The notes: a model not told the origin generated them from the letters alone. Positions 1-59,619 are shown, counted from the first letter of the stretch. The stretch is 64,000 bases of DNA from Candidatus Heimdallarchaeota archaeon (GCA_020353515.1 CP070695.1:2770155-2834154), one strand, 5' to 3'. Numbers and translations: made by a program.

Positions 1-342
1 AGTCACTAGAATACTCGATCTTCCTGCAAGATAAAAATAGACTGGAATCGTTAGTTTTGGATTAATCTCTTTATCATATTTTACTGACCTTGAACCTCGT
101 TGAAGTTCCTCTGTTGTCTTAGAAATAATATTTCTAACCCAACTAACAACAATTAACACCGTTTCAGAAGAATCTTCTTGATACTGAGATTCTAGAACTC
201 GTCCATCAACTCGAAAGAGTAATACAGCTTGCACATTTTCAAACTCAGCTAAATGTCCGATCTCTTCGCCAATTGAATTCACAACTGCTGATAAAGGCGA
301 GACTGAGAGTATATTATTAATCTGGAGTTCTTGAGAAGGCAT
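1..342 (-). CDS. Roadblock/LC7 (MglB-like) domain protein, truncated by window edge
   Basis: Not in the ORF track; manual translation from ATG at 342 gives MPSQELQINN...EFENVQAVLLFRVDGRVLESQY...PVYFYLAGRSSILVT, open to base 1. The 'V.AVLLFRVDG.VL.S' pattern is typical of roadblock folds. Starts 1 nt after the stop of the KaiC-like gene. Confidence 0.7.
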   Translation of the reverse strand, partial: MPSQELQINNILSVSPLSAVVNSIGEEIGHLAEFENVQAVLLFRVDGRVLESQYQEDSSETVLIVVSWVRNIISKTTEELQRGSRSVKYDKEINPKLTIPVYFYLAGRSSILVT

Positions 343-343
343 A

Positions 344-1090
344 CTATCTTGAGATATCATATACTAACAACCCTTTACTTTTCTCAAATCCAATAGGTTG
401 AGGTGCTTCTGCATGACCAGATCCTCTGAACTTGCGAATACTTAGCGTTCTATTGTAAATTCCACCCAATCCAATGTGTTCTAATTCGATAATTGAATCA
501 GATAAGAATAGTGGAATTCTTGCAAGAGTTTTTCCAAATCCTCTCTCGATTGTAACAATAGATGTTCCAATCTTTCTTAACGAAGAGAAAATTCTATTTA
601 TCACGTTTCTCTGCTGGTTTGCTTCTGGGATTTCTAGAAGTAAAGGAGTAAGAGGATCGATAGCTATTCGAATACCTCCATGATAACCCTCTGCTGTTTC
701 TTTGATCACTTCAAGATACTTTGGTAATTCAGACATAAAAAATCGTAAGGCAATTTCACCAGAAGTCAAGTCTGAATCTTCAGAAAAAGCAACTTGGAAT
801 TGGAGATTTCCTCGTTTATACTTCTCCTCAAATTGTGTTAAACCTATATCCTTACAGTCCTGGAGTACAGAATTTAGATGTTGTTCTAAGGAGACGTACA
901 ATGCTGGTGAATGGGGATCTTTGGAACAAAATTGCCAGCAAAATGTGGATTTACCACATCCAGGATCAGCAATGATTACATTAACCGAATTTTTCCGAAG
1001 GCCTCCAAAGACTAGATTATCAAACCCAGGAACACCACTTAATATCCTTTCATATTCTTGTTTTTCCATTTTTCTTAATAGTTTTTGCAT
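344..1090 (-). CDS. KaiC/RAD55-family RecA-superfamily ATPase (single domain)
   Basis: SGVPGFD..GG N-terminus, Walker A ADPGCGKS, YVSLEQ, Walker B RIAIDPL, C-terminal RTLSIRKFRGSGH. Confidence 0.9.
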   Translation of the reverse strand: MQKLLRKMEKQEYERILSGVPGFDNLVFGGLRKNSVNVIIADPGCGKSTFCWQFCSKDPHSPALYVSLEQHLNSVLQDCKDIGLTQFEEKYKRGNLQFQVAFSEDSDLTSGEIALRFFMSELPKYLEVIKETAEGYHGGIRIAIDPLTPLLLEIPEANQQRNVINRIFSSLRKIGTSIVTIERGFGKTLARIPLFLSDSIIELEHIGLGGIYNRTLSIRKFRGSGHAEAPQPIGFEKSKGLLVYDISR

Positions 1091-1100
1091 TTAATTCACC

Positions 1101-1703
1101 TTAAGAGATTAATAGATGTTTTGAGATTTTTAATGATGAATCTGGAGAGAAAATTTCCTCCCTTTTCTTATAATTCTGAACAAATTCAATTATTGTTTCA
1201 AAAATCTCCATTACAGAGAGTACATCTTTTGATGAACATTTAAATGAAGAAACACACTGAAATTTCTTCTGAAAAGCTGTCAAATCGATTTCTCTTTCTT
1301 CAGAAGAAGCAATATCTGATTTTGTTCCAATTAAAAATCTAGGTACATGAGGCTCAATGAAGGTCAACCACTCGGGAATCGAAAATAGGGATGATAAATC
1401 TGTCAGATCAAAACATAAGAGTGCAACGTCAGAACCTCTACAAAATTCTTTAAATACCCCCATGTTCTTGAATTGGTCTTGTCCTCCTAGATCCCAAATT
1501 TGAACCTTACCACAAGGTTTTTTATGGTCAGAAAATATTTTTGAATGAAATTCAATTGCAATTGTCTGTCTGGTATCTCTAAAAAATGAATTGTTTATGA
1601 ATGTCTTTGATATCGTGGTTTTTCCAACGCCACCTTCACCTAAGATGACTATTTTCAAAGGTTTCACACTATTTGGGGGGATTAACCTCATGAGACACAC
1701 CAA
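1101..1703 (-). CDS. Rab/Ras-like small GTPase
   Basis: G1 GEGGVGKTT, G2 QTIAIEF, G3 WDLGGQ, G4 GTKSD, G5 CSSK; no C-terminal prenylation cysteine. Confidence 0.92.
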   Translation of the reverse strand: MVCLMRLIPPNSVKPLKIVILGEGGVGKTTISKTFINNSFFRDTRQTIAIEFHSKIFSDHKKPCGKVQIWDLGGQDQFKNMGVFKEFCRGSDVALLCFDLTDLSSLFSIPEWLTFIEPHVPRFLIGTKSDIASSEEREIDLTAFQKKFQCVSSFKCSSKDVLSVMEIFETIIEFVQNYKKREEIFSPDSSLKISKHLLIS

Positions 1704-1762: not shown

Positions 1763-2020
1763 TTGGGAGGTTATAAGATGGAAAGAAAGCAAAAAATTGG
1801 TGAAATCATGAAATTTTTTTTCAGGAAAAAAAAGGCTTTTTCTTTGATGAGGATGTGTAGGTTTAAAAGAAGAGGATCACCTTTAGTTGAAGAAGGAATA
1901 TTAATTGGATTGAGTCTTTTTGGCTTTTTACTCATTTTATCAATTGTTACTGGAGTTCTTGATTGGCTTCTAGTTAATGCTGATGAGTTACTCAAGGAAT
2001 TAGGATCCTTATTTTCCTAG
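1763..2020 (+). CDS. Flp-like short type IV pilin (class III signal peptide); true start probably a downstream ATG
   Basis: Basic leader FKRRG|SPLVEE with Gly at -1 and Glu at +5, then a hydrophobic helix GILIGLSLFGFLLILSIV and a short amphipathic tail; mature length about 47 aa. Confidence 0.7.
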   Translation: MGGYKMERKQKIGEIMKFFFRKKKAFSLMRMCRFKRRGSPLVEEGILIGLSLFGFLLILSIVTGVLDWLLVNADELLKELGSLFS

Positions 2021-10839: not shown

Positions 10840-11025
10840 TTAAACACTAACTTTTAGATTATGTAGAGTAAAGATGAAAAGACCAGTCAATAAACAAAAT
10901 TTTCCGATTCGACTACCACTGGGGGCATAGAGAATTGAACCAAAGGTTATTAAAAGCGCTCCAAATTGTACAGATAAAATTACTTCCAAGCAGATGAAGA
11001 TTATGCCTGTAAGGATTTCCAACAA
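10840..11025 (-). CDS. Small two-helix membrane protein, VirB2/TrbC/CedA1-like pilin candidate
   Basis: 61 aa; hairpin LLITFGSILYAPSGSRIGKFCLLTGLFIF (G-x-I-x-Y...GK); 4 nt downstream of the 173-aa paralogue. Confidence 0.5.
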   Translation of the reverse strand: MLEILTGIIFICLEVILSVQFGALLITFGSILYAPSGSRIGKFCLLTGLFIFTLHNLKVSV

Positions 11026-11029
11026 ACAT

Positions 11030-11551
11030 TCATGTCCTCCATAATGGCATATTCGGAAACTGAAAACCTAATGGTAAAATAATACAGACTAGACAGATCA
11101 AACTCTTTTTCAAGGTATTAATCCGCTTTTTATCCGATGAAATGATATATAATCCGAGATTTCCAAGAAAAATAATGAAAGATAAGGCAGCAAATATAAA
11201 AAGCAAATAAGATGTTATAAAGGATGTAATTGACTGAAATCCCTCAAAAGGTTCTGTTACCTCTTCCGTAGTAGGAAAATTTGGATTGAAAATGAAGATT
11301 AATAGTGCTAAGACAGCCAATGATCTTAAAATCATCTTTTTGCCATTTTCCTCATTATAATCTAAAAGATAGACTATAGCTCCTGAAATAATTGAAAGAT
11401 TTACTACAACAATCGCGATACAAAGAGAAATTGGGAATAGAGATGAAAAGAATTCCATCATTTTGTTTGAAAAAGCTTGGAGATAGTTTATGACCTCAAA
11501 AGAGAAAAGGTCCCTTTCATCCATTAAAAAAGCCAGACAGTCTAGAATCAA
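11030..11551 (-). CDS. Four-TM membrane protein with two tandem VirB2/TrbC-like pilin hairpins
   Basis: Repeat 1 LSIISGAIVYLLDYNEENGKKMILRSLAVLALL; repeat 2 FIIFLGNLGLYIISSDKKRINTLKKSLICLVCII. Confidence 0.55.
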   Translation of the reverse strand: MILDCLAFLMDERDLFSFEVINYLQAFSNKMMEFFSSLFPISLCIAIVVVNLSIISGAIVYLLDYNEENGKKMILRSLAVLALLIFIFNPNFPTTEEVTEPFEGFQSITSFITSYLLFIFAALSFIIFLGNLGLYIISSDKKRINTLKKSLICLVCIILPLGFQFPNMPLWRT

Positions 11552-11711
11552 GATTATCCCTAATATTCCTGGAAGTAAGCGAATCCTATGTTAATTCATA
11601 ATTATGGCATATAAACTCCCAAGATTATTCCAATCATTTTTTTAAATTTAAGATCACTTTTCATTTCTATTACCATTTTCCTTACTAGCAAAATCTCCAA
11701 TGAATAGGATC

Positions 11712-13109
11712 CTAGATTTCACTACTGGCTTCCTGACCTAGGTCAATGGTAATACCTTTTAGATTATCTATAACATCATTTATATCAATTTGATTTACAA
11801 TTAGAGAATCCAATGTAAAAATTCCTGACTCGGAGCTTGGATAAGAAAGAAAAGATTCAATATTCTTTTCAGATAGAGTTTCAATCTTCCCTTCCTTTGT
11901 CAATTCAGCAATTCTCATAATTGTCCGCTTTTTTACATTTTTGATCCAAGAGACATTCAATTCGATGAAAACATGAGGGAATGAAGTTTTCAAAAGTCCA
12001 AGGGGAATCTCATATATATCTTTTAAACGAATGAATAAATATTCAGGATTTCGACCATGTATTGTTTGAATTGATGGAATTCCCACAGAAAGAACATTCA
12101 GGAAGGCTGTAAAGTTGTCTTTTGTAGAAAGTTCTCCTAAGTTTATGAAATCTGGACTTCTATGCAAAATTTTTTGGATCTCCAGTGATTTTGAAAAAAC
12201 CATTTTTTCTTGAGGGTCATATCCCAAACGAAATCTAACTGTATTTCCCTGTCTTGTTTCAGTAGTTTCAAGAACATCTTCCACAGATAGAAGCCGAAAA
12301 TGAGGAGGAATGTATTCAATTAAGGCGTTCTGTAGTGTTGTTTTTCCTGAATTTGGAGGCCCAATAATAGATATAGAAACTTGATTCTGTATTAAAAATA
12401 CCAACAAAATTGCCTGATTTAAAGTAATACTTCCATTGTTTACTAGATCTGATATTCTTAATTTTTGAGAACGAAATTTCCTAATGTCGATGTGAAAATC
12501 TTCAATGATAAGAGGAGGTATATCTACCGTAACTCGAGTATGGAATAATGAAGACACAAAATCTGATTTCATGGTTGGATTACTTTTATTTAAAGAAAAA
12601 TCGTTTTCTAATGCAACTCGATAAATAAAGGATTCAATTTCTTCTTTTTTAAGTTTTATTGATGTAGTACATCTCCCATGTCTTGAATGGTCAATGTAAA
12701 GGTTTTTTTTGCTTGAATCTAGATAAATTTCGTCAATCTGATCATCAATTAATACGGATCCAATTTTCTCAAGATCGAGTGCACGTAACAATACTGGGAT
12801 TAATAGTTGTTCAGGAAGTTCTAAATGACTAGAAATATCTGCTGATAAGTAATTGTAAAGTTGGTTAAAAGTACAAAAGTCTTTTTGCCCTAAAACAAAT
12901 TCTTTAAGGTAGATCTTAATCTCCTTTTCATAACGGCTAAAATTTTTTAAGTGATTATACGTTAAAGGATTGTATTGAACCTGATACTCAAATTCTTTTG
13001 TTTGGGGCACTTTAACTATCGAAACAATGTAACAATGAAAAGAATAGGAGTCTATCACCATTTTCTCGTATTGATCAATACTATAGTTACTAATTGATTG
13101 ATAATTCAT
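11712..13109 (-). CDS. Type II/IV secretion ATPase (CpaF/TadA/VirB11 family)
   Basis: DDQIDEIYLD, IDIRKF, Walker A GPPNSGKTT, Asp box SVEDVLE, LHRSPDFINLGEL (Walker B), His box QTIHG. Confidence 0.92.
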   Translation of the reverse strand: MNYQSISNYSIDQYEKMVIDSYSFHCYIVSIVKVPQTKEFEYQVQYNPLTYNHLKNFSRYEKEIKIYLKEFVLGQKDFCTFNQLYNYLSADISSHLELPEQLLIPVLLRALDLEKIGSVLIDDQIDEIYLDSSKKNLYIDHSRHGRCTTSIKLKKEEIESFIYRVALENDFSLNKSNPTMKSDFVSSLFHTRVTVDIPPLIIEDFHIDIRKFRSQKLRISDLVNNGSITLNQAILLVFLIQNQVSISIIGPPNSGKTTLQNALIEYIPPHFRLLSVEDVLETTETRQGNTVRFRLGYDPQEKMVFSKSLEIQKILHRSPDFINLGELSTKDNFTAFLNVLSVGIPSIQTIHGRNPEYLFIRLKDIYEIPLGLLKTSFPHVFIELNVSWIKNVKKRTIMRIAELTKEGKIETLSEKNIESFLSYPSSESGIFTLDSLIVNQIDINDVIDNLKGITIDLGQEASSEI

Positions 13110-13131
13110 TTTTTACTCCCTGCTAAAGATT

Positions 13132-13461
13132 TCATTCTGGCTTCTTTGACTCTTGAATCATTTGACTAAAAATGGCTCCTAGATTGTTGGAAAGAGAGTT
13201 TTTTAATGAATTATCTTTATTTTCTGCAATATCAAAGCAGTATTTTCTTCGTACAATTCCTTGACCATCGATATAAAGAGTAAGAATATGACCCTCCTTT
13301 GAATGCGACATTGCCTTGGTAATAAGAGAATGTTGTTCACGGGCATTGATTAATTCAGACTCAGAAATAAAAATCGATTCCTTCTTTCCACATATTGGAC
13401 AAGTCGTCTGAATGACAGTTTTTTGCGTTTGGAGGATAGGCAATTCAACTACCGTAATCAA
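13132..13461 (-). CDS. Small putative Zn-binding protein (CPxC...H...H...LYID...VR)
   Basis: TCPICGK, SHSKEGHILTLYIDGQGIVRR; 22 nt upstream of the ATPase on the same strand. Confidence 0.65.
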   Translation of the reverse strand: MITVVELPILQTQKTVIQTTCPICGKKESIFISESELINAREQHSLITKAMSHSKEGHILTLYIDGQGIVRRKYCFDIAENKDNSLKNSLSNNLGAIFSQMIQESKKPE

Positions 13462-13780
13462 TTTCGGGAATGAGATTAAAAAATCCCAAATTTCTCACAA
13501 GTTGAAAAAAAGTAGGAAACGGTTAATATCAAGATCAGATTGGAGTAGGTACGAATCTTGTTCGTATTGTTTTTTTTAAGCTGGCTCCTTAGGTTTTTGA
13601 GGTTGAATTTGGTATTATGCTTGAAATAAAATCTTTATGTGAGATTTCATTAAACTTTCTCATTTCTTTCTAAAAAATAATTCTTGGGTTTAAATAAAGG
13701 ATGTTGAAACAGTATAATGTCAATATCACATTAACCCTCTGCTTTCCTTTAAATCTTTCTTCTTGATTGGTGTAATATAG

Positions 13781-15283
13781 ATGCTGGGTAGTGTTTCAAA
13801 TAATATCCAATCTATATTATTTGGAAATTTTGATTTCTTTTCTCAATACAATTTCGAGGAATATTTCAAATCTAAGTTTAAGTTCGGTGAAAAACAGGTT
13901 TTATTAATTTCTAAGATGTTCTTTATCTTATCTCTTTTTTTCATTGGGTTTCAGACTTTTTTTTTAGGAATTTTTTTAGAAGGAATATTAATAGAGTTAG
14001 CTTTAACGATAGCTTTCTTAAGGTTATCTAATTACATTATTTTTATCCAATTTAAGGAATATTGCACTACAGTAGAAACAATCGGTTATTTTGTTGTAAA
14101 TGAACTATTAGTGATACTAGATACTTCAAGTTCTTTAAGGGAAGCTACTAAGTTTATCATATCAAGCAAATATCCTCTATTTTCTGAAATTTTTACAAAT
14201 GCAATGATTTCAACACATTTTGGCAATTCCCTTAATTTTGCTTTAAAAACTCAAATAACAAGAAGTCTTTTTGGTAACATCCAGACCGTTTTCTTGTATA
14301 TTTTAGAAATTTGGGAAAATGGGAAAAATATTGCTCTCCTTTCAAAGAATAGGATTCTTAGTAGAATTTCAGATCAAATAACAGAAGAAACAAATAAAAT
14401 TGACTCTTGGGCCTCGTTATCAGCTGGAATTACATTTCTAAGCCCTCCAGTAATCTTTTGCTTTTTATTAATTTCTGGGAACATGAGTGTATTTTTTGGA
14501 TTTTTAATCATAATTGGAGTAATTATCGGATCTTTGTTTATCCACCCTGAAAGACATCTAACAGTGTTCTCAAAGAATAATAAGCTCTTCTTATCTTATG
14601 ATAAAAAATCATTAGAACTCTTAGTTATTCTTTCAGAGAATCTCTTAAGTGGGAATTCTTTCAATAAAAGTTTGAACAATGCGTTAAATGTAGTAGAAGT
14701 TTTTCCACAAAAAAACCAAACCACAAGAATGTCAGAACCTTATACTCTGTTTAAATTAGGTGTTACACAAACAAACGATATTGAAACCAATTTTTTAGCT
14801 AAATTTTTTCCTGAAAGAATCATACAACTTGTCTTATTAATAAAAAAGTTCTCAATGATCGATATTTCCATTGCAGGTAAAAAATTACAGACAATAACTA
14901 AAGAATTAGGCAGAACCAATGAATTATTAAGTAAAGGTGATGCACAACTTAAAGCAGCAAAATTGCATGGGAATATTATACAAATCCTTGCCTTAGTCTC
15001 ATTAGCTTTTATAGCTGGAGCTAGCTCCTACTTCCTTTTTGTATCAAATATGATTTATCAGCCATTTACAGAAACATCAATGACAACTAGTAATTCTGTC
15101 TTTGAATTAATCTACTTAATAACAGCTCTTGTAATAAGCTTATTACCAATCAGAAGAATCAATGTTAAAGGATTTAGAAAACATGAAGCAATACCATGGA
15201 ACGGTATCATAGGATTATCTAAATTTACAGTATTTCTAATTGTATATACAGTTGTTAAGAACGCTTTTATAGGAATGATTTGA
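13781..15283 (+). CDS. TadB/TadC (T2SS-F/FlaJ-like) membrane platform protein, two repeats
   Basis: Multi-TM; two T2SSF-like soluble segments (ELLVILDTSSSLREA...EIFTNAMISTHFGNSLNFAL and LVILSENLLSGNSFNKSL), each followed by TM pairs; divergent from the CpaF ATPase. Confidence 0.75.
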   Translation: MLGSVSNNIQSILFGNFDFFSQYNFEEYFKSKFKFGEKQVLLISKMFFILSLFFIGFQTFFLGIFLEGILIELALTIAFLRLSNYIIFIQFKEYCTTVETIGYFVVNELLVILDTSSSLREATKFIISSKYPLFSEIFTNAMISTHFGNSLNFALKTQITRSLFGNIQTVFLYILEIWENGKNIALLSKNRILSRISDQITEETNKIDSWASLSAGITFLSPPVIFCFLLISGNMSVFFGFLIIIGVIIGSLFIHPERHLTVFSKNNKLFLSYDKKSLELLVILSENLLSGNSFNKSLNNALNVVEVFPQKNQTTRMSEPYTLFKLGVTQTNDIETNFLAKFFPERIIQLVLLIKKFSMIDISIAGKKLQTITKELGRTNELLSKGDAQLKAAKLHGNIIQILALVSLAFIAGASSYFLFVSNMIYQPFTETSMTTSNSVFELIYLITALVISLLPIRRINVKGFRKHEAIPWNGIIGLSKFTVFLIVYTVVKNAFIGMI

Positions 15284-15393
15284 TTAAAAAAACTTTAATC
15301 TAAGGATGAAATTTTTGGGAGTTTTTTAAATAAACTTTGCACATGAAGGTGGAGGTTCTATGAAGAATTGACCAAAAGAGGGATAAAAAAAGG

Positions 15394-18300
15394 ATGAAAT
15401 TTAGGTATCAAAAGCTTAAAGATCTATTGGTTATCCTTTTCATTACAATCGCGATAATAATCAGTCATTTCGCAGTTTATAATACCCTTTTTTATCCCAA
15501 TACAGCATATTCAACACATAAACAAGTTTTAGAAGATGATCTTCAGGCGATTCAAAAAAATAGACCTAATCTTGAAATTAATGACTTAACTGGGGAGCCT
15601 ATGCAGTATTATATTGAACAGGGTGAAAATTTTGAATTAAAAACTAATGAGACCAAAGTAATGTTAACAACTTCAGAGACAAATGTTTCTATCAGATCAA
15701 GGGCTATAAATTCTTCATTTCAGCTTATCTCTACGGGTAATAATAGTAGTAATGAATGGAAAAATGATACTGAATATGGGAATGTTAACGTATCTACTAT
15801 CCTCCTGGGAAATGAAAAAGTTTTTCGACTTAGTTTTGTAAATAGGAGCGTTTTTGATTCAGGAGTTAACAATTCAAAATTCCTTGTGTCCTCAAATCCA
15901 AGTTTAATTAATTTTCCAACTATCATCTCCTTTGATTTTCGGATCCCATTTCTATCTCAAGAGTTATTAAATTCCTCACATACATTATCTTTAGATTTTA
16001 AATTCAATAACGGTAAAATAACATTCATTTTATCAGATTGGGGTGGAACTCTAAGTGGAGAAGGATTTGAAGAAGTTGAGGAAGATATTATTTATGACAA
16101 TAGGTCATCCTCAATCTATGTCCTGTGTAATGAGACTTCTCCCTTTATGAATTGGAGACATATTTCTCATAATATTACCAGAATAATTACAGCAAATCTA
16201 CCTCCAGAGGATTACCCAAACTTTTCGAATCTGAAATCTCTTTTTTGCCATATGATTACTTATATTCCGTACAATTTAACATTAGATATCAACGATATAA
16301 CGTATTTTACGTCTTTACCTCCTTATCCTCCAATTAATTATACAATTGGAGAAACTATGGTCTTTACTGACAACGGTACATTATCCTATGATTCAAGAAT
16401 GGAAAATTTCACCCTATCTGCAAGTGAGGAATATCCCTGGAAAAATAACTCCCAAACTTACCTGGATGTAAATGTTACTCGCACAAAAAGTCTTGAGAGT
16501 TTTTGTGAATTTATAGAATGGAATGAAACTAAAGTTAGGATTAATGTTGCTATAAATATTCCTAATATTCTTAAAAATGCGTCTTTTAGTAATATTCACA
16601 TTATTCTCCCTTCTGATTGGATGAATATCACCTTTCTTAATGAAAGTAACACTCTCAAGTTTTATAATCAGACGAAAATGTTGAATGAATTTATTTTAGG
16701 AAACCATTGGCAAATAAACGTCTTTGGAATAGTGTGGGGTATTCTTGAAGCTTGGGCACCAAATTATTTCTCAAATGTTGAAGTTCCAACAGACGTTTGT
16801 AGAAATGAAATAATTCTATTAAGAGGGTATTTACGTTATCCCTTATCTGGAGACATAAATTTATATTTACAGAACGGGTCTTTTACCTTCCATCAAACTA
16901 CTCTACCAATGATCAATTCAACTTTTATTTTTCCAGAGATAACGATTACTGAAGAGTTTCCGCTTGGTCTATTGCAGCTCACTCTTAATTGGTCAAATTC
17001 ATGGGAGTTTGGAATATTCGAAAAATTAATCTATATTCATGAGCAAGGAAGTTCTTCCTCACACATCTTATTCCAATCGGCACAGACTATCGATATTCAT
17101 CAATTTGAATCATTTTCGATCAATTTAAGTCTTTTACAAAATGGAGAAACGTACAGTTCAAATTCAACCATAGTTTTTTTGATGAAAGGGAGTGACTGTC
17201 TCTTTTTTTCACATTTATCTTTGAATAACTACATTCTAAATGTTTCTCATGTTACTTGGGATCCAGGGAATTATTCTATTGATGTCATTGCTTCTGATGG
17301 TAGTTTGTTTTTTGCTAAGGACATGTTAAACTTAACTATTAAACCTGCTTCAATCTTTTGGAGTTTCGAAAACTTAAAAAGCACCTTGGCTCAAAATGAA
17401 AGTATAGCTTTTCGACTATATTCTTATATCAATCCTCAAGGAGATGATTATTTTAAAATCCTTTCAGGGCTCACTATTAGGATTTGGATCAATGCAACGA
17501 TAAATTCCATTTTTGAAACGAATTCCGAAGGATTCGTAGATATTTATTGTGATTTTACATACACAACAAATAGTGATTATCTTCAGGTAGTAATAGAAGG
17601 AATGCTTGAAGGGGAAGTTTGTAAGCTACAAACACTGCTCTTTCTTCTTTCTAATGAAACATCCCTAAGTGATGGGGATCGTGCATATATTCATGAGATA
17701 ATGAGATCTCCAATAAAGGCAAACGAAACATTTTACGTATATTATCAAATTGATTACTCAACTAATAATTCAAAATGGTTTGTACACATCGAATCATTTA
17801 GTAATGTAGTATTATCTGCGTATATTTTACGAGATAACTATATTATTGGTACTGATATTGAAAATGATCTGTTGGTCTGGACATTAGAAGCAAGTCAATT
17901 GAATGATGATATATTGGTAATTGAATTACCAGGTCCAACTGCATTGGTTATAGAAGAATCTATTTCGAAAAAATTTAGGTTTAAACTTGAGGTTTTTTCA
18001 GAAATTACAACAAATAATTACTCGATAGATATCAATCTGAAATTTTTAGGTTTTCCTTTCTCTAATCTCTCTCTGTTTGATTCTTTAAATAGGAATGTTA
18101 CTGATTTGTTTCCAATTACTATTAAAGGGGAAATTGTTTCACTTTTTCAATTTAATATTATTGGTGGATTCGAAATATGTTACTTTTTAGAAGGATATCT
18201 TCATGAATTGAATATTATAATAAGAAAACCTTTTCAAGCATCATATTCCTATAATGAAAGTATTTTTGGTAGTTGGAGAATAAATACACCAATTGAATTT

Positions 18301-18903
18301 TCGTATATGGTTTCATATTCAATACTAGGATTAGGATCTTGGGAATGTTATAACACTAGCTTGGAAGTGCTACCAAATTCAACGAGTGTTATAACAGCTT
18401 TCCTGCCTCCCCAAAATTGGAATAGTACGATCTCGATCCAACTAATTGTGAAGTATTTTTCTGACTTATTACTAGTTAGTCCTTTGCAGAATTTCACAAT
18501 TCGTGACCCCTTCCCACCAATGTTGGATTATTCTATTGAATTATTAGCTGATATTGTGAGGATTCATGCATATGTTTTTGAACCTGAAAAAGCATCAGGA
18601 ATAAAGAATGTTTCTTTATTGAATGGAGATCAAGACATCACAGCTACTCTTCTTTCCTTAAATCATTATATATTTGACATTTCAAAAAACACTATCCATT
18701 CTCCAGTCATTAAGGTAACTGATTGGGCCGAGAATGAGAGATTAGCCGAATTTACTCACATTACTAGATTCTTTTCAAATTCTCCTTCCCTTCTAAAGGT
18801 TGTAGAATCACAATATCTCTTACCTCTATTGTTTTCGATAACAATAATTGGTGGTATCTTTATCTCACGAATAATCAAGAAAAGGAAAACTACAATTCTT
18901 TGA
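15394..18903 (+). CDS. Large membrane-anchored cell-surface glycoprotein (beta-sandwich repeats)
   Basis: 1169 aa; N-terminal signal/TM; many N-x-S/T sequons; beta-rich; DPFPP linker; C-terminal TM plus basic tail KKRKTTIL. Confidence 0.75.
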   Translation: MKFRYQKLKDLLVILFITIAIIISHFAVYNTLFYPNTAYSTHKQVLEDDLQAIQKNRPNLEINDLTGEPMQYYIEQGENFELKTNETKVMLTTSETNVSIRSRAINSSFQLISTGNNSSNEWKNDTEYGNVNVSTILLGNEKVFRLSFVNRSVFDSGVNNSKFLVSSNPSLINFPTIISFDFRIPFLSQELLNSSHTLSLDFKFNNGKITFILSDWGGTLSGEGFEEVEEDIIYDNRSSSIYVLCNETSPFMNWRHISHNITRIITANLPPEDYPNFSNLKSLFCHMITYIPYNLTLDINDITYFTSLPPYPPINYTIGETMVFTDNGTLSYDSRMENFTLSASEEYPWKNNSQTYLDVNVTRTKSLESFCEFIEWNETKVRINVAINIPNILKNASFSNIHIILPSDWMNITFLNESNTLKFYNQTKMLNEFILGNHWQINVFGIVWGILEAWAPNYFSNVEVPTDVCRNEIILLRGYLRYPLSGDINLYLQNGSFTFHQTTLPMINSTFIFPEITITEEFPLGLLQLTLNWSNSWEFGIFEKLIYIHEQGSSSSHILFQSAQTIDIHQFESFSINLSLLQNGETYSSNSTIVFLMKGSDCLFFSHLSLNNYILNVSHVTWDPGNYSIDVIASDGSLFFAKDMLNLTIKPASIFWSFENLKSTLAQNESIAFRLYSYINPQGDDYFKILSGLTIRIWINATINSIFETNSEGFVDIYCDFTYTTNSDYLQVVIEGMLEGEVCKLQTLLFLLSNETSLSDGDRAYIHEIMRSPIKANETFYVYYQIDYSTNNSKWFVHIESFSNVVLSAYILRDNYIIGTDIENDLLVWTLEASQLNDDILVIELPGPTALVIEESISKKFRFKLEVFSEITTNNYSIDINLKFLGFPFSNLSLFDSLNRNVTDLFPITIKGEIVSLFQFNIIGGFEICYFLEGYLHELNIIIRKPFQASYSYNESIFGSWRINTPIEFSYMVSYSILGLGSWECYNTSLEVLPNSTSVITAFLPPQNWNSTISIQLIVKYFSDLLLVSPLQNFTIRDPFPPMLDYSIELLADIVRIHAYVFEPEKASGIKNVSLLNGDQDITATLLSLNHYIFDISKNTIHSPVIKVTDWAENERLAEFTHITRFFSNSPSLLKVVESQYLLPLLFSITIIGGIFISRIIKKRKTTIL

Positions 18904-18913
18904 GCTGAAAGCT

Positions 18914-20368
18914 GTGAATCTGAAGACTATAACAAATAGATTAAAAAGTCTCTCCATAGTTCTTCTCTCACTTGTCATAATCATCATTATTGAAGGTTTA
19001 TTAATAATGAACGATTGTACTGGTGTTTTGAAGAATATAACCAAAGCTCCTATGGATTTAGTAAGATATTTTCCAATAATCATTTTATTATACCTTTTTA
19101 CGAATGAAATATTTATAACATTCAGAATAAATATTTCTCCATTAAAATTCACTTTGAAAAAAACAGGAATAGTTTTTTTCCAAGATTTCCATATCTGGTT
19201 AGCAATATTCGAAACATTTTCTATAAGAAAAATACAGACGAGTGAATTGAAACAGCTAAAACATTTAAAAACATTCTCACTAGAACTAGACGGAAAGAGA
19301 AAGTGTGTTAGAATTGTTCTTTATTCAAAATCTTATAAAGAGTTAGAAGAACGAATTAAAACTTCAAAACCAATCTTAGAGGTCGTTTTACCTGATATAC
19401 ACTTCGTTTCTAAAGCTGATTTAACTAAATCATATGATGAAACTGAAATGCTGAAGATTGGGGAGGAATACATTTTAAAAGAAAAATCAGAGTTACTTTT
19501 TCCTCAATTTAATATTTTACTAAATGAGAGTTCTCCTTCCTTTTTTAGAATGGTTCTAGCTTGTGATATTCATGATGAGATGAAAAAAAAATTAGATTTC
19601 GTGAATTGTATCCAGATGTACTTCTTTCACAGTTATGATCAGACATCATTTTTTCAATATTTGAATAGAAGGTTTTTCAGATCTCAAATAAAGACATTTG
19701 ATCACATTCAGGATGTTCAAGAGCTTCAGAGGATATGCTTAAGATATCAAACTAAAAAAGGGCCTTACCTATCTTTTCAAGAAGGTCTTGACCATTTTGT
19801 AAGTTTTTTTTCCTTATTTTCCCTAGAACCAAACATAATCGAGACTGGAATGAAACAAAATTTTCAATTATTATCCTTACAAAGCGAAAACCAATCATTA
19901 AACCTTTTGGATACGGAAAAAATAACATCACACCTTGAAATGAACCAGATATGTGCAGAATTATGTAATTATCCAAATGAAAACGAACTATCATATAAAG
20001 AAAAAGAAACAAGATGCAAAAAAAGGGCAGTATTTTGTCAGAATTTATTAGAAAATGCTAATTTCTTTTCAATATTAGAGAGTCTGATTAATCAAAAGTA
20101 TATAACTGATAAAATTCATCTTCTAACAGAACTAAGACGCCATCTTACCTATCAACAACTTATTTGTTGTATTTCTCATCTTTGTCATCTTAACTACCCT
20201 GAGATTCCTTATCAAAAGATTGTAAACTTAATTCATATTTTGTATTCATTAAACTATAAATCCTACAAAGCTAAAAATGTTCTTAAGATAGATAAAAACC
20301 CTGATTCTACTATATTTTCTGATGATGGAACTACTAAGCACATTTTTCATTCATTAGCACCAAATTAG
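18914..20368 (+). CDS. Hypothetical membrane protein (2 N-terminal TMs, large cytoplasmic part)
   Basis: 484-aa ORF 10 nt after the glycoprotein gene; two hydrophobic segments in the first 75 aa. Confidence 0.7.
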   Translation: MNLKTITNRLKSLSIVLLSLVIIIIIEGLLIMNDCTGVLKNITKAPMDLVRYFPIIILLYLFTNEIFITFRINISPLKFTLKKTGIVFFQDFHIWLAIFETFSIRKIQTSELKQLKHLKTFSLELDGKRKCVRIVLYSKSYKELEERIKTSKPILEVVLPDIHFVSKADLTKSYDETEMLKIGEEYILKEKSELLFPQFNILLNESSPSFFRMVLACDIHDEMKKKLDFVNCIQMYFFHSYDQTSFFQYLNRRFFRSQIKTFDHIQDVQELQRICLRYQTKKGPYLSFQEGLDHFVSFFSLFSLEPNIIETGMKQNFQLLSLQSENQSLNLLDTEKITSHLEMNQICAELCNYPNENELSYKEKETRCKKRAVFCQNLLENANFFSILESLINQKYITDKIHLLTELRRHLTYQQLICCISHLCHLNYPEIPYQKIVNLIHILYSLNYKSYKAKNVLKIDKNPDSTIFSDDGTTKHIFHSLAPN

Positions 20369-20488: not shown

Positions 20489-20596
20489 TGGGCCCACCCG
20501 GATTTGAACCGGGGATCTCTCGGTTATCAGCATCGCCCGTCCTGACGAATATCCTTCAGAACGCCGAGCGCTTTAACCAGGCTAAGCCATGGGCCC
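20489..20596 (-). tRNA. tRNA-Ile(GAU) with 33-nt non-canonical intron at 30/31 (20532-20564)
   Basis: GGGCCCA/TGGGCCC acceptor; spliced anticodon arm CTCGG-CTGATAA-CCGAG; BHB central helix CGCT/GGCG, bulges CG|G and AT|G, intron stem CGTTCTGA/TCAGGACG. Confidence 0.92.
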
Positions 20597-23084: not shown

Positions 23085-23402
23085 TTGGTGAATTCTCCTT
23101 TTGAATCTTTCATTTGGTGTCCTTGTATGAATCCAATATTCCTAAGCCAATGGGATGAATATATTCGTGGTTGGCAACTTTTAATCGAATCTGGAGATCA
23201 AATCTTTTGGACGATCCTTATTCTTGTAGCTTGGATGGTACGAGCAATTTCTCTAACAATGATTCTTATTCAGCTCGGAGATAGATTAATCCGAAAAAAG
23301 AAAGATTTTGAGTTTAACCTTTTGTTAACTGGGTTAATCTTCATATTAGTAACTGTTCCTTTCTTTTTGGCTGGTTTTTCGTTAATCTATCCTTTCCCTT
23401 AA
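23085..23402 (+). CDS. Small membrane protein, possible third hairpin-pilin paralogue
   Basis: Two hydrophobic helices flanking a basic loop (RKKKD); LLTGLIFI resembles LLTGLFIF of the 61-aa protein at 10840. Confidence 0.5.
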   Translation: MVNSPFESFIWCPCMNPIFLSQWDEYIRGWQLLIESGDQIFWTILILVAWMVRAISLTMILIQLGDRLIRKKKDFEFNLLLTGLIFILVTVPFFLAGFSLIYPFP

Positions 23403-24993: not shown

Positions 24994-25568
24994 TAATTTG
25001 ATTCCTCGGATAAACAAGGTTAGAAATTCGTTTCCTCTTACTTTTATGCTTTTAAAGAATTGTTATATTTTTATTTTGATAACTTCAACCAAAAGTCATC
25101 TTCTGAAATAGGTAGGAGAATTATGAAGATTGAAATCATGGTTGAAAAGCGGTGAATCAATAGCTAGGAAGAGAAAATTACATCGAAGTTAATATTAGAC
25201 CATTATAAGATAGTTGGGTATAAATATGGATTTTTCTTTAGTTGGTGGTTGTAGGATTTTATGAGAAAATTAGTAGTATTATCTAGACCATTTTCCCATG
25301 CTTAGAATACAAGTTGACCTAAATGTGGCTCTCAGGGCAAGTCATCTTCTATCTGATTTTGTAAGGTCGTTATTGGACAGAGTTCTTTTAATAATCCGAA
25401 TGTCGTGATAGTGCCACTCACAGAAACTATTCTATTGTTAAAAAGCCCATTAGCGACAATTAACTAATTTTATTAGATATAAATGAACTTTTCCTCCTCC
25501 TATCACTCATTTTTACTCAAGTCTCTCTTTCTGTGTTTTACTTAGAAATAATAATCTCATCTTTTCTC

Positions 25569-26600
25569 ATGGTGGAAATAGTGAGATATCGCTGTCTAGA
25601 ATGTGATGGAAATCTTATTCAAACTGAAGCTGACATTGTATGTATGAATTGTGGATTAGTAGCAAACAAAATCTATGAAAAACCGACAATTCAACTAATA
25701 AAAGCTGAAAGTAGTTTTGGGAGTCAATTTGCTTCTATAAGTGAAAGGCCTAGTGCCATGAAATCATTAGGAACATACATTGGTACTTATCGGAAGAGGT
25801 TTCTAGCAGATGCAAAAGGGGCTCAATTAAAAATCCCTGCTAAACAACAATTTCGAAGGTTAAAATCTCTTAATGACATCTATCTTCACTTTAACGGCCG
25901 CCAACGAGAGTATCGTGGATATAATCTATTAACTACAATGTGTAGTATTCTACAGATAACAGATGCAGCAAAAGCTGATGCTCTTTTTTTATACCGAAGT
26001 GTGCAGTCTCATTTACATGGGGAATTAAAGCTTTCTTGTCTAATTATGGGTTCCCTTTATTTATCAATCCGATCTAGAAAAGAAAATATCGAGCTAGCTC
26101 GACTTGTTACTGCTGCTCAAAGTCGAGGTTATTTTATTCTTGGTAAAGATATAATTAAAGCGGCCTCATTAATCAGACAACACGCTAGAATTCGAATAAG
26201 TCATGTCAAATCTGAAGAGTATTTAGATAATGTAATCAGTCGCCTTCATAAAGACCGAGAAATCACAAAACAGTTACAAAAGAAAGTTTTTGTAGAAAAA
26301 GCTGAGTATTTTCGCTGTTTAAAACTTGGTGCAAAGAATTTACTAGCAAACTTTCCCCAATCTGATCGTGGAGGACGAAATCCATTTATTCTTGCAGCAG
26401 CAATTATTATAGCTTCAGATATTATGTTAGCACGACAAAATTCATTTTATCATTGCTATAAACGTAAATCTAGGAGAGGTATCTTGACACAAAAGCATAT
26501 TGCTAAGATTTTGGGCATTGCTGAATTCACATTACGTGAACACTATTTACTCTTAGCAAAACCCTTGATGGAAACAGAATTAAACAGTATTCAGGTATGA
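25569..26600 (+). CDS. Divergent TFB/TFIIB-family transcription factor
   Basis: Zn ribbon CLEC...CMNCG, cyclin repeats, GRNP..LAAA, HTH TQKHIAKILGIAEFTLR; lacks the PEWRAF B-reader. Confidence 0.85.
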   Translation: MVEIVRYRCLECDGNLIQTEADIVCMNCGLVANKIYEKPTIQLIKAESSFGSQFASISERPSAMKSLGTYIGTYRKRFLADAKGAQLKIPAKQQFRRLKSLNDIYLHFNGRQREYRGYNLLTTMCSILQITDAAKADALFLYRSVQSHLHGELKLSCLIMGSLYLSIRSRKENIELARLVTAAQSRGYFILGKDIIKAASLIRQHARIRISHVKSEEYLDNVISRLHKDREITKQLQKKVFVEKAEYFRCLKLGAKNLLANFPQSDRGGRNPFILAAAIIIASDIMLARQNSFYHCYKRKSRRGILTQKHIAKILGIAEFTLREHYLLLAKPLMETELNSIQV

Positions 26601-31234: not shown

Positions 31235-31690
31235 TTATGGGCCAGTTTTATAGTCATACATCACAATTGTGCCTGCTGCTGCTATAATGGTGATAATGAT
31301 ACCCAAGATTAATAATGTAATGGAAGTTCGCACATCATATGCAAAACGAGTGGAATAATGAATTAAATAAAGGCCTCCTGAACCTATTCCAAAAAATAAT
31401 CCTGCGATCAAGGACTCAACCAAGAACTGTTCACTTGTAGATTTGAAAATTGGTACAAGTTGGGTGGCTGTCTGTCCCATTGGCAATGGTTGTTCTGTAA
31501 GATTGTAAAGTCCTCCAGCTAAAATAAATACTGTAACAAACAATAAGACGGCTAGAATATATTTATGAGGAGCTTCGTAGGGGAGTTCAATATCAGGAAC
31601 CCTAAAATCGATTGTAGGTCTTTTTAGACCAGGAATCCAAGGAAGTCGAGGAAAATAAGCCTTCTCTTTATCAGGTTGTTTTTTTGACAT
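31235..31690 (-). CDS. Oligosaccharyltransferase subunit OSTC/DC2 (OST3/OST6 family) homologue
   Basis: Three TMs; FILAGGLYNL..QP and QFLVESLIAG.FF.IG..G match the DC2 motifs FLITGGIIYD..EPP and QYIMEGL. Confidence 0.8.
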   Translation of the reverse strand: MSKKQPDKEKAYFPRLPWIPGLKRPTIDFRVPDIELPYEAPHKYILAVLLFVTVFILAGGLYNLTEQPLPMGQTATQLVPIFKSTSEQFLVESLIAGLFFGIGSGGLYLIHYSTRFAYDVRTSITLLILGIIITIIAAAGTIVMYDYKTGP

Positions 31691-33184: not shown

Positions 33185-33291
33185 TGGACCGACCGGGATT
33201 TGAACCCGGGAGCTCCGCCTTGCGAAGACGGCGTGAATGACCTGACTTCATGTAGATGCTAGTTCTCCGCATTTTATTTCACTATCGGCCC
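33185..33291 (-). tRNA. tRNA-Ala(CGC) with 31-nt intron in the 5' D-arm (between 10/11 and 14/15)
   Basis: Acceptor GGGCCGA/TCGGTCC (G3:U70); anticodon arm CCGTC-TTCGCAA-GGCGG; a normal D-arm with stem GTGA/TCAC results after removing about 33247-33277. Confidence 0.85.
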
Positions 33292-53450: not shown

Positions 53451-53555
53451 GGCATCATAGCTCAGTTAGGTAGAGCGTCCGGCTGTTAATTTGTATCTCT
53501 TAAAGATTACGATACAGATACCGGGTGGTCGCAGGTTCAAGTCCTGCTGGTGCCG
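53451..53555 (+). tRNA. tRNA-Asn(GUU) with 31-nt canonical intron (53489-53519)
   Basis: GGCATCA/TGGTGCC, G73; TCCGG-CTGTTA|A-CCGGG; BHB helix CTGT/ACAG. Confidence 0.93.
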
Positions 53556-57438: not shown

Positions 57439-59619
57439 TTACAGATGAGTTTCAGTTGGATCAAAGACCAGATTTTGATAAGATTCACGTAATCGTTTCT
57501 GTTGAGGAATATCTTGAAGTGTAGTAATATCCATTGAGGATGATGGATCAACAGGGAAATTGTGGGTCTTCATAAGAGAAATTTGACCGTTGATTGAGAG
57601 TAAACAACGTCGCTCATCAGGGTTTGCTTTTAATAAATCACGAAATTTCTCATAGTCAGTTTTAGATATACCAAGTAAGTTAGATATGACATAAGGATCA
57701 AATTTGGTAAAGAAAACAGCCAAAACGCCTGTATTTGTTAATATAGGCTGCTCAACAATCGGATCAGTACCAATGAATATCATTGATATATCATAAGCCC
57801 GTAAGGTCCAAGGACCCTTTGCAATCATTGACTCTGGAGTCCTAGATGGGTAACTTCTAGCAGGAATGAGTTTTTGAATCTCATCGAGAACAAATATATT
57901 CTTTGGAAGGCTACCCTCCTTGAAAGGTGATCGAAAGCTTCGAACAAAATAGTAAATGTATTGCAGGATAACATCTAGAAAGATTTGTCTTCCTCTTTGG
58001 TCTTCCATTGACTCAAACGCTGAAAGGTCAATGATTCCATTCTGATCTAATAATTGGGATAATTCAAAAGTTGTTTTGTGAACAGTAAAACATCTGCCTG
58101 TATTACCAAAGAAGAGTTTTTCAATACGATTCAGAATACCTGCAGCGGTGTTATCGAGATAGGCGCCTTTCATTCCTAATTCATGGGGCATGTTAAGGCA
58201 ATTAAGAAATGTCTGAAAATCCCCCTGATCTTTCACAGTTTGAATGACCGCCAGATGAAGAAGACGACGCATTTGGGGCGAAATCGCATCTGAATCTTCA
58301 AATGTATGTTCAAGAAGAGACACAACAAATTGAATATGATCCTCTATTGGTATAATGCTGTCTCCGTGTTCATTCTTGGGAATTTGGAAGATATTTATCC
58401 CCCAAGGAAATGTAGTAGAACCAGGTTTCAAATAAATTAAATCCTTACAAAAAGATTTAATTGGAGCTAAGTATTCACCTTTGGGATCAAAAATAAGGAA
58501 TTTTACGCCCTTTAGGAGAAATTCCTTGATTAATCCATATACAAAACGACTTTTTCCCTCACCAGTCATACCAAAAACAGCCATATGTCTACTTAGATTC
58601 TTACCATCAATTAGAAGAGGAACATCTGAGGTCTTACCGCTAATAATAGGAATGCCAAGATTAATGGCTTGTAGAGGTGCTGTACTATTAATACCAGAAG
58701 ATAACATATAATCTTCTTTATTTGGGACAAGAGTGTAACCTTCATATGAGAATTGTCGTTGAGGAGGGGAAATTAGACTCATCAATGAATAACCATCTAA
58801 AATCGTAGGAGAAGTTTGTTTTCGTTTTACACAGAGATTTCTAAGGGAAGAAAATCGATGCCAAAAAGTCGGATAGATACACACTTTGAATCCATTAGAG
58901 ATTAATAGAACTGATAATCTATCAAGTTTTAATTGTAGAGCCTTTAGGCTGTTTTCTACAATTATAACTCGCGGTGAGAATTTGAAACAACCAGTTTCTT
59001 CCATAATATTTTTTCTTTGAGGATGAAAACGACGTTCTACTTTTCCTTGTTGAATATCAAATCGAACTTGAGTCAAATGATTTTCTTGTCTTTTATTTGT
59101 CTGATATTCCTTCGGAAGTTTAACAGGTTCGAAAATCAATTGTACAAACGCAAATTGGGGAGATTCTGTTAAAATTTCAAGAAAATCATCTGAAAAACCG
59201 TCAGCTGTTGTAATGGGTTGATCAATTTTATTTTCTAATCCTATTATTCCTCCACAATAGTATTTGGGACCACCTGAACCTAATTGAAACCTGGGCCGAA
59301 GCATTTTTAGTATACTTTGAATAGGAGTTTCTCCTATCTTATGGTAATCAGGATGAAGCCCAAGTTTTGTTGCAAATTGTTGGATAGTTGCGATTCCTCT
59401 TTCAATTCCTTTTTTACGGAACCACTCTTGTGGAAGAGGAATCATCTTGATCCAGACAGTTTTCGGATCAAAAATCGCATATTCTAATGAAAAAGCTTGT
59501 TTAGCATTTTGAAAAACCTTAATGCTAGATTTATCTGCTTTCAGAGGAACCTGGTCAAAATTAAAGGCAGGGATATTCTCAATCATCAGAAACACATCTT
59601 CGTAGTATCTCCCCAACAA
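57439..59619 (-). CDS. VirB4/HerA/FtsK-family (DUF87, CedB-like) ATPase with long N-terminal domain
   Basis: RHMAVFGMTGEGKS, IFDPKGEY, GINIF, IFVLDEIQ, LRAYDISMIF. Confidence 0.85.
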   Translation of the reverse strand: MLGRYYEDVFLMIENIPAFNFDQVPLKADKSSIKVFQNAKQAFSLEYAIFDPKTVWIKMIPLPQEWFRKKGIERGIATIQQFATKLGLHPDYHKIGETPIQSILKMLRPRFQLGSGGPKYYCGGIIGLENKIDQPITTADGFSDDFLEILTESPQFAFVQLIFEPVKLPKEYQTNKRQENHLTQVRFDIQQGKVERRFHPQRKNIMEETGCFKFSPRVIIVENSLKALQLKLDRLSVLLISNGFKVCIYPTFWHRFSSLRNLCVKRKQTSPTILDGYSLMSLISPPQRQFSYEGYTLVPNKEDYMLSSGINSTAPLQAINLGIPIISGKTSDVPLLIDGKNLSRHMAVFGMTGEGKSRFVYGLIKEFLLKGVKFLIFDPKGEYLAPIKSFCKDLIYLKPGSTTFPWGINIFQIPKNEHGDSIIPIEDHIQFVVSLLEHTFEDSDAISPQMRRLLHLAVIQTVKDQGDFQTFLNCLNMPHELGMKGAYLDNTAAGILNRIEKLFFGNTGRCFTVHKTTFELSQLLDQNGIIDLSAFESMEDQRGRQIFLDVILQYIYYFVRSFRSPFKEGSLPKNIFVLDEIQKLIPARSYPSRTPESMIAKGPWTLRAYDISMIFIGTDPIVEQPILTNTGVLAVFFTKFDPYVISNLLGISKTDYEKFRDLLKANPDERRCLLSINGQISLMKTHNFPVDPSSSMDITTLQDIPQQKRLRESYQNLVFDPTETHL

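Follow-up and report, generated by a model that had tools for sequence, protein, structure and literature searches.

A strongly diverged, probably Flp-type type IV filament locus beside rpoA1 in a Hodarchaeales archaeon

The present analysis concerns a 64,000-nucleotide stretch of DNA (hereafter the window; G000:C1:2770155-2834154) from a 4.94-Mb, single-contig genome for which the names borne by homologs place the source organism in the Hodarchaeales (Heimdallarchaeia, Asgard), and within it a cluster of seven open reading frames (ORFs) at 10840-20368. Our results suggest, with moderate confidence, that this cluster is a strongly diverged, Hodarchaeales-specific Flp-type type IV filament (T4F) machine with genus-specific membrane accessories. 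The ATPase (C) and the fused platform protein (E500, or E) are identified by sequence and modelling as a T4F motor, and two other proteins of the cluster, D109 (D) and F1169 (F), accompany this motor across distant lineages. The conserved module comprises the ATPase, D, the platform and F, together with an Flp-like class III pilin and a Ras-like GTPase encoded elsewhere in the window, and to it the genus adds A61 (A), B173 (B) and G484 (G). The seven ORFs form two divergent arms separated by a 319-bp spacer between rpoA1 and tRNA-Ile, each of them where an earlier reading of this DNA (the original prediction) had placed it, and are listed here with their identity within the genus:

10840-11025, minus strand: A61, 61 aa, two-helix membrane hairpin, genus-specific accessory; 49-65% identity, with 42-62% also obtained for its orthologs in 7 genus genomes
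11030-11551, minus strand: B173, 173 aa, four transmembrane segments forming two hairpins, with an acidic Pro-rich linker; 44-67% identity
11712-13109, minus strand: C, ATPase, 465 aa, T2SSE (FlaI/GspE/CpaF/VirB11) superfamily, secretion/assembly type of a hexameric family; 57-74% identity
13132-13461, minus strand: D109, 109 aa, small soluble protein with Cys2-His2, conserved neighbour of the ATPase; 51-77% identity
13462-13780: divergent intergenic region, AT-rich, presumed from the divergent arrangement only to hold promoters
13781-15283, plus strand: E500, 500 aa, fused two-repeat platform of predicted T2SSF fold (FlaJ/TadC/PilC-like), strongly diverged; 37-68% identity
15394-18903, plus strand: F1169, 1169 aa, giant sequon-rich anchored surface protein; 31-56% identity
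18914-20368, plus strand: G484, 484 aa, membrane protein with two N-terminal transmembrane segments; 25-40% identity, the fastest-evolving member of the cluster

The intact CpaF/VirB11-superfamily ATPase of the original prediction was borne out by our searches. C matches Pfam T2SSE at 1.1e-15, above the cut-off, and its Walker A, Asp box, Walker B and His box motifs (G250-T258, E277/D278, D320...G325-E326, T349-G352) are all intact and invariant or nearly so across 11 sequences. Its best relatives in the Protein Data Bank (PDB) are the Archaeoglobus GspE-like protein 2oap (afGspE; 5e-18) and FlaI (2.5e-13), both over residues 113-404, followed by CpaF (2e-11), with VirB11 (4e-7) matched by the C-terminal domain only. 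A partial VirB11 match ranks first in NCBIfam (7e-26), and all family matches there are far below cut-off, including those to the FlaI equivalog (62 bits, cut-off 550) and to BasE (2.3e-13).

The platform is strongly diverged. None of eight E500 orthologs gives a direct Pfam T2SSF match, and a profile search found only 43 relatives among 1.84 billion representatives; in the E500 alignment, T2SSF is recognised in 10 of 38 sequences (the 38 include the 8 genus orthologs), and one relative, P0012, combines a profile match of 1.9e-64 with a T2SSF match of 2e-4. The AlphaFold2 model of E500 (predicted local distance difference test, pLDDT, 82.5) resembles an archaeal T2SSF cluster of the ESM-Atlas with a TM-score of 0.68 over 448 aa, and Foldseek gave it a single high-probability PDB match, to chain Ca of 3jc8, a model of the type IVa pilus machine (prob 0.97); the alignment profile gave nothing meaningful against the PDB. 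The two halves of the protein align with each other as an internal repeat (P=8.6e-5), which supports a two-repeat architecture. Judged from sequence and model, E500 is a fused FlaJ/PilC-type platform and not a Tad-type split pair, and the two-repeat TadC-like platform originally proposed alongside the ATPase is upheld. When 200 other genomes of the phylum (at least 85% complete) were searched with the E500 profile, matches were found in 14 of 14 genus members and in the one sister-family genome; the class is represented by a further 35 genomes of other families, and at E<=1e-8 none of them gave a match. Since the platform gives no Pfam T2SSF match, screens based on family models could miss the module.

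Co-inheritance of the cluster is evident within the genus, well beyond what chance would give. Of the 20 same-genus species genomes that were searched, 18 have an ortholog of the ATPase (58-82% identity), and the best match beyond the genus falls to 36% identity. In each of the 7 genus genomes with enough flank, the whole set of seven genes is bounded by rpoA1 and S9/L13; reading frames are intact and synteny is strict in 6 of these, and the seventh (G211) is rearranged, with its C-D-E arm inverted relative to rpoA1 and B173 split by a 6.8-kb insertion. Flank identity within the genus is 91-96% for RpoA1 and 81-87% for S9, compared with 25-77% for the cluster genes. On one side the cluster is flanked by rpoA1 (Rpb1 domains 1-5) and on the other by tRNA-Ile(GAU) and the genes for ribosomal S9 and L13, and its modestly higher AT content, already noted in the original prediction, was confirmed (GC 0.29-0.32 over 11-20 kb vs 0.35-0.385 in both flanks). 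A recent insertion was considered because the cluster is AT-rich and adjoins a tRNA gene, and it was rejected: no flanking direct repeat (att) is visible around the cluster, no integrase or relaxase Pfam match was found among its proteins, and it holds the same position across the examined genus genomes. The view of the locus as chromosomal and non-mobile is upheld, and its sequences indicate an old, vertically inherited, fast-evolving chromosomal island.

Loci outside the source genome are given below by L numbers, which denote contigs encoding distant E500 relatives, with L025, L028 and L031 being genus/ortholog loci of the cluster itself. The G211 insertion (L025, G211:C18 11460-18280) carries a gene for an RRXRR-HNH nuclease (IscB-like domains), a dCTP deaminase, a GT4 glycosyltransferase and two ORFs without a Pfam match, and a similar RRXRR-HNH gene occurs in L036 (14053-15276), 2 kb from the ATPase. 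Several further features of the window bear on the wider module or on the flanks of the cluster:

344-1090, minus strand: KaiC-like ATPase, single-domain
1101-1703, minus strand: Ras/Arf-superfamily small GTPase (Pfam Ras 1.4e-27)
1763-2020, plus strand: Flp-like class III pilin candidate, motif-based, about 9 kb from the cluster
20489-20596, minus strand: tRNA-Ile(GAU), Rfam, 108 nt, intron-bearing
25533-26600, plus strand: TFB-like paralog, a diverged TFIIB/TFB-like protein with an N-terminal Zn ribbon (NCBIfam TFIIB 9e-09)
57439-59619, minus strand: HerA/DUF87 ATPase, 726 aa, soluble (Pfam DUF87 8e-18)

The components of the module cluster repeatedly, in changed orders, in distant lineages. 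Within 13 kb, L045 encodes C (1.6e-97) with a D109 homolog (3.7e-18) directly upstream, a major facilitator superfamily (MFS) gene, an Arf/Ras GTPase, E, a 158-aa membrane protein, a DUF87 protein (34% identical to the window copy), a 153-aa four-transmembrane protein, a 63-aa Flp-like pilin (VKRRG|SPLVEHGILIG, the bar marking the predicted cut), an F homolog (1.8e-35) and a 638-aa membrane protein. In L036 we observed an F homolog (1.5e-50), a TFB-like gene, E, C, an Arf/Ras GTPase, a roadblock gene and an Flp-like pilin (NRG|SPLMEEGILIA), with DUF87 7 kb off. E, a GTPase, a D-like gene and C are consecutive in L050, and a D-like gene (38% identity to D109), a GTPase and E are found in L049, so that homologs of D109 adjoin the ATPase or the GTPase in L045, L049 and L050. 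For the GTPases adjoining the platform or the ATPase in L036, L045, L049 and L050, the window GTPase is the best or second-best match of about 40 paralogs (39-48% identity), and in the window it stands head-to-head with the Flp-like pilin gene.

Other genes may belong to the same module. The GTPase, the KaiC-like ATPase and one further ORF form an operon (window 1-1703, minus strand), which is the one oriented head-to-head with the pilin gene. Since KaiC proteins of the ArlH type bind the archaellum ATPase, the KaiC-like gene may, by analogy, be part of the T4F module; its full-length match to ArlH is weak (3e-7, 30 bits, cut-off 215), and other KaiC families score higher. Homologs of the TFB-like paralog are located directly beside the platform in L035 (45%) and L036 (33%), a TFIIB-like gene is found near the platform in L049, and the paralog may be a dedicated transcription factor of the module. 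It was also observed that a membrane protein of about 120 aa encoded at window 31328-31690 (minus strand) is 36% identical to the 157-158-aa proteins beside the platform/ATPase in L045 and L050, and that it has a paralog at genome position 3203049-3203501.

The original prediction had listed an Flp pilin at 1763 among the parts found elsewhere in the region, and it does seem to belong with this motor, as the gene is conserved and is motor-linked in other lineages. The protein carries KRRG|SPLVEEGILIG followed by a hydrophobic helix, with a mature peptide of about 50 aa. The gene is single copy; identity is 74-92% across 20 of 21 genus genomes and 57-61% for the orthologs in both sister-family genomes. 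It is on the same contig as the ATPase, 10-17 kb away, in at least 12 genus genomes, and the orthologs of L045 and L036 are located within the motor cluster or next to it. The genome has a single PF01478 match above cut-off, an A24 prepilin peptidase at G000:C1:1374501-1374800. It also has a separate, conventional Epd/Tad-like type IV pilus (T4P) locus at G000:C1:1420603-1428506, with a 502-aa ATPase, two separate T2SSF genes (302 + 332 aa, C1:1.4235-1.4269 Mb) and several pilins whose class III signals are of the form KxRG|Q or TRG|V. As that locus has its own, different pilins, the Flp-like gene is left free for the motor described here.

From these observations we infer a working order of steps. 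The filament subunit would be the Flp-like pilin of 1763-2020, and not the hairpin proteins A61 and B173; its precursor would be cut after KRRG by the single A24 peptidase of the genome, and C and E would then pull it out of the membrane and assemble it into a polymer. D may act on the ATPase, and the Ras-like GTPase of 1101-1703, perhaps with its KaiC-like and roadblock neighbours, may gate where and when the filament assembles. F could be an adhesin or an envelope-spanning partner, whereas A61, B173 and G484 would be lineage-specific, fast-evolving membrane accessories of the machine. The product would probably be a filament at the cell surface that serves in attachment or in contact between cells. 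Read in this way, the locus is a coherent, very diverged T4F module in which a motor is tied to a minimal pilin, a giant glycoprotein and a recurrent Ras/Arf GTPase, and it offers candidates for a filament subunit, for the regulation of a prokaryotic surface machine by an Asgard small GTPase and for syntrophic attachment.

Cultured Hodarchaeales have been described with unexplained helical filaments, 15-25 nm thick and with tip knobs of about 50 nm, on protrusions at contacts with syntrophic partners (bioRxiv 10.1101/2025.02.26.640444). That the motor, the Flp-like pilin, D and F together build these helical surface filaments, with F as sheath or tip and the GTPase controlling the machine and placing it on the protrusions, is a speculative reading to which we give a low probability. 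If true, it would mean an archaeal surface organelle under eukaryote-type small-GTPase control, in a group that is at present considered closer to eukaryotes than any other archaea.

The D109 alignment shows invariant C21, C24, H53 and H58 and a motif Y-x-D-G...R-R-x-Y, and the invariance of these four residues makes a zinc site plausible. The D109 family has 75 members, all from Hodarchaeales/Heimdall-type metagenome-assembled genomes (MAGs) and none with a Pfam domain, and profile searches of the PDB with D109 and with G484 gave nothing meaningful. A complex prediction for ATPase C and D109 scored 0.00, which weighs neither for nor against binding. As originally described, F1169 is an anchored surface protein: it has an N-terminal hydrophobic signal/anchor, about 1100 predicted extracellular residues, and a C-terminal transmembrane anchor with a basic tail, and with 47 N-x-S/T sequons it ranks among the highest 0.24% of the genome's long ORFs (36-48 sequons in its orthologs). 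Language-model leads of F1169 to Ig-like/Big_1 domains (ESM-Atlas 0.76) were set aside, being below any useful threshold. In its orthologs, N-termini with a class III-like motif were seen in L028, L031 and L036 (DKG|LSIV, PRG|LIIL and HKG|QILI), about 3 of 8, and the window copy (LKD-LLVIL) and others are without it; the motif may be due to chance or be a relic of pilin-like processing. G484 has the two N-terminal transmembrane segments that had been predicted, a cytoplasmic domain of about 400 aa and four invariant Cys; outside the genus, in the distant motor-keeping loci L036 and L045, no G484 was detected.

Several observations weigh against the reading of the cluster as an Flp-type T4F machine. 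There is no pilin gene inside 10840-20368, and the Flp-like protein outside it has no Pfam Flp_Fap match, its class III signal being read from the motif only; among the components by which a T4F is recognised, the ATPase, the platform and the A24 peptidase are all present, and the pilin is so by motif only. All loci lie in the conserved region of RNA polymerase, ribosomal and elongation factor genes, and their recurrent proximity could partly be ancestral synteny. In L044 and L048, the platform is found alone among ribosomal/housekeeping genes. The parts given above to A, B, D, F and G are conjectural, and filament formation and processing are predictions. The lone platforms of L044 and L048 give some room to the possibility that an ATPase/platform pair, perhaps a remnant T4F, is simply adjacent to unrelated, fast-evolving membrane and surface genes in a variable island, the more so as no homologs of A, B or G could be detected beyond the genus and as a census of archaeal T4F considers some scattered Asgard sets to be likely remnants (PMC13705601). 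We nevertheless regard mere adjacency as improbable, since seven intact frames and strict synteny in 6 of 7 genus genomes persist despite 25-77% identity, the ATPase motifs are invariant, and C, D, E, F, the GTPase and the Flp-like pilin come together again in rearranged orders in several distant lineages. A better case, still an unlikely one, can be made for a machine like the Sulfolobus bindosome (Bas) or a type II secretion pseudopilus, in which a short Flp-like piston or an assembly platform would install or expose F, and perhaps further surface proteins, in the envelope with no long pilus. F is membrane-anchored and sequon-rich and co-clusters with C and E over a large evolutionary distance, some of its orthologs have N-terminal KG| or RG| class III-like motifs, and C has its match to NCBIfam BasE, at 2.3e-13 and far below cut-off; however, the motif is present in only a minority of F orthologs and not in the window copy, the C-terminal anchor of F is atypical of T4F substrates, and no solute-binding or Bas-specific components were found.

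The central claim of the original prediction was a hybrid of T4P and type IV secretion system (T4SS) parts, in which a Tad-type motor polymerises VirB2/CedA1-like hairpins (A61 and B173) and, with a VirB4/CedB-like ATPase, mediates chromosomal DNA exchange. The hairpins themselves were confirmed: A61 is predicted to fold as a single helical hairpin and B173 as a pair of them with an additional N-terminal helix, and A61 and both halves of B173 are N-out/C-out hairpins with a turn G-x-I/L-x-Y, a short loop and then basic residues (G-x-I-x-Y-x-P-T/S-G-x-R-x-G-K in the conserved turn of A61), the topology of mature VirB2-type pilins. In deeper alignments the three align in one register, weakly (B half 1 vs half 2, P=0.0034; A61 vs the halves, 0.028 and 0.052, by hhalign), which makes a common origin of the three plausible; a comparison of A61 with B173 from 8- and 6-sequence alignments gave E=0.39. 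Language-model neighbours of B173 at 0.82-0.88 include clusters of T4SS_pilin, DUF4134, TrbC and CedA1, a range that can serve as a lead only, and the pairing with this motor is not absurd in itself, as VirB11 is a T2SSE-family ATPase. However, the similarity to VirB2 pilins goes no further than topology and these leads. A61 and B173 have no Pfam or NCBIfam match, and hidden Markov models of TrbC (PF04956) and T4SS_pilin (PF18895) gave nothing for them, neither in a Pfam scan (E<=1) nor in scans of the whole genome (E<=10); their alignment profiles found nothing meaningful in the PDB and no conjugative pilin. The AlphaFold2 model of B173 (pLDDT 78) retrieved only generic helix bundles in Foldseek and VIA-align, with no conjugative pilin listed, in a fold too simple to exclude pilins. 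All 57 homologs of B173 (E<1e-36) come from Hodarchaeales-type MAGs, and none has a Pfam domain. The original prediction had named the lack of a VirB2-like fold and of co-occurrence with the ATPase/TadC pair as what would speak against it, and this was found in part: fold searches were uninformative, and A61 and B173 were not detected beside the motor in distant loci outside the genus. Small membrane proteins in analogous positions there match B173 too weakly for homology (hhalign; L045, 153 aa, P=0.005; L035, 238 aa, P=0.006), and in G211 B173 itself is interrupted. A 105-aa protein at 23085, which had been offered as another hairpin protein, has no significant similarity to A61 or B173.

The DNA-transfer half of the claim fared no better. 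In the 4.94-Mb genome there are no matches to VirB4 (PF03135) or to TrbL/VirB6 (PF04610) at E<=1, and the only large polytopic protein of the locus, E500, has a T2SSF and not a VirB6 fold. The supposed VirB4/CedB-like ATPase at 57439 has a DUF87/HerA match and only weak PDB matches, to HerA-like proteins and TrwB. It lacks transmembrane segments, its neighbours are soluble, with no membrane protein or channel among them, and its paralog at G000:C1:3167160-3169295 shares 66% identity with it; on this sequence evidence it is a soluble HerA/DUF87 ATPase and not a demonstrated homolog of VirB4 or CedB. What favours a loose link to the motor is that three other lineages, L035, L036 and L045, have orthologs of it (30-39% identity) at 2-8 kb from their platform genes. 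With a fitting class III pilin also available for the motor, the hybrid is not supported, a role in DNA transfer is not indicated, and we judge a hybrid apparatus to be the least likely of the readings considered; the analysis removes a claim that was attractive but unsupported. The same DUF87 proximity would suit competence-like DNA uptake or exchange that needs no VirB2, with an Flp-type fibre capturing DNA or partners and the DUF87 ATPase, of the HerA/FtsK superfamily, pulling DNA in, and T4F fibres do serve DNA uptake in bacteria. This is only slightly less improbable than the hybrid, since 37 kb separate the window DUF87 gene from the cluster (43 kb if measured to the platform gene), its paralog is elsewhere in the genome, no ComEC-like or CedA-like channel and no DNA-binding component were identified, and the proximity seen in other lineages may be inherited synteny of the core genome.

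Comparison with known systems is also consistent with a diverged T4F. The locus shares with archaeal T4F (FlaI/ArlI-FlaJ/ArlJ, Aap, Ups, Epd, Bas; PMC13705601) a T2SSE ATPase, a two-repeat T2SSF platform, a candidate class III pilin and an A24 peptidase, but its platform is too diverged for Pfam T2SSF, its minimal pilin is encoded apart from the motor in the genus, its accessories D, F, G, A and B and the Ras-like GTPase match no described subsystem, and it lies among RNA polymerase and ribosomal genes. The census of these systems reports Asgard T4F genes as scattered and mostly unassignable, with nothing described that resembles this accessory set (PMC13705601). Unlike the archaellum, the locus has no archaellin or ArlF/G match in Pfam or NCBIfam. 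With bacterial Tad/Flp systems it has in common a short Flp-like pilin (G|, Glu +5), a CpaF-related ATPase and a single-ATPase layout of the non-retractile type; it differs from them in having one fused 500-aa platform where Tad has separate TadB and TadC, in lacking equivalents of RcpA, TadZ and TadE-G, and in a pilin without a Flp_Fap match. The Ced/Ted importers and T4SS (PMC9905601) likewise have small, unprocessed two-helix hairpin proteins with a basic turn, comparable to A61 and the halves of B173, and a chromosomal, non-mobile locus, whereas the motor here is of T2SSE/T2SSF type, there is no VirB4 or VirB6 homolog, and A and B have no sequence link or informative fold link to VirB2-type pilins. 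The control of Myxococcus T4P by MglA/MglB (PMC9481161) offers a parallel for a Ras-like GTPase and a roadblock protein that are genomically tied to a T4F motor and pilin, although in the present case the link is genomic only and the GTPase comes from the expanded Asgard Ras/Arf set.

A minor observation concerns the tRNA genes of the window. The tRNA-Ile(GAU) that adjoins the cluster (20489-20596, minus strand) has the anticodon loop CTGATAA and a 32-nt intron at a non-canonical position, just 5' of that loop, where the 5' strand of the stem ends; it was missed by ARAGORN and detected by Rfam. The same was seen for three more intron-bearing tRNAs, at 2067-2171, 33185-33291 and 53451-53555, which ARAGORN also misses and Rfam detects.

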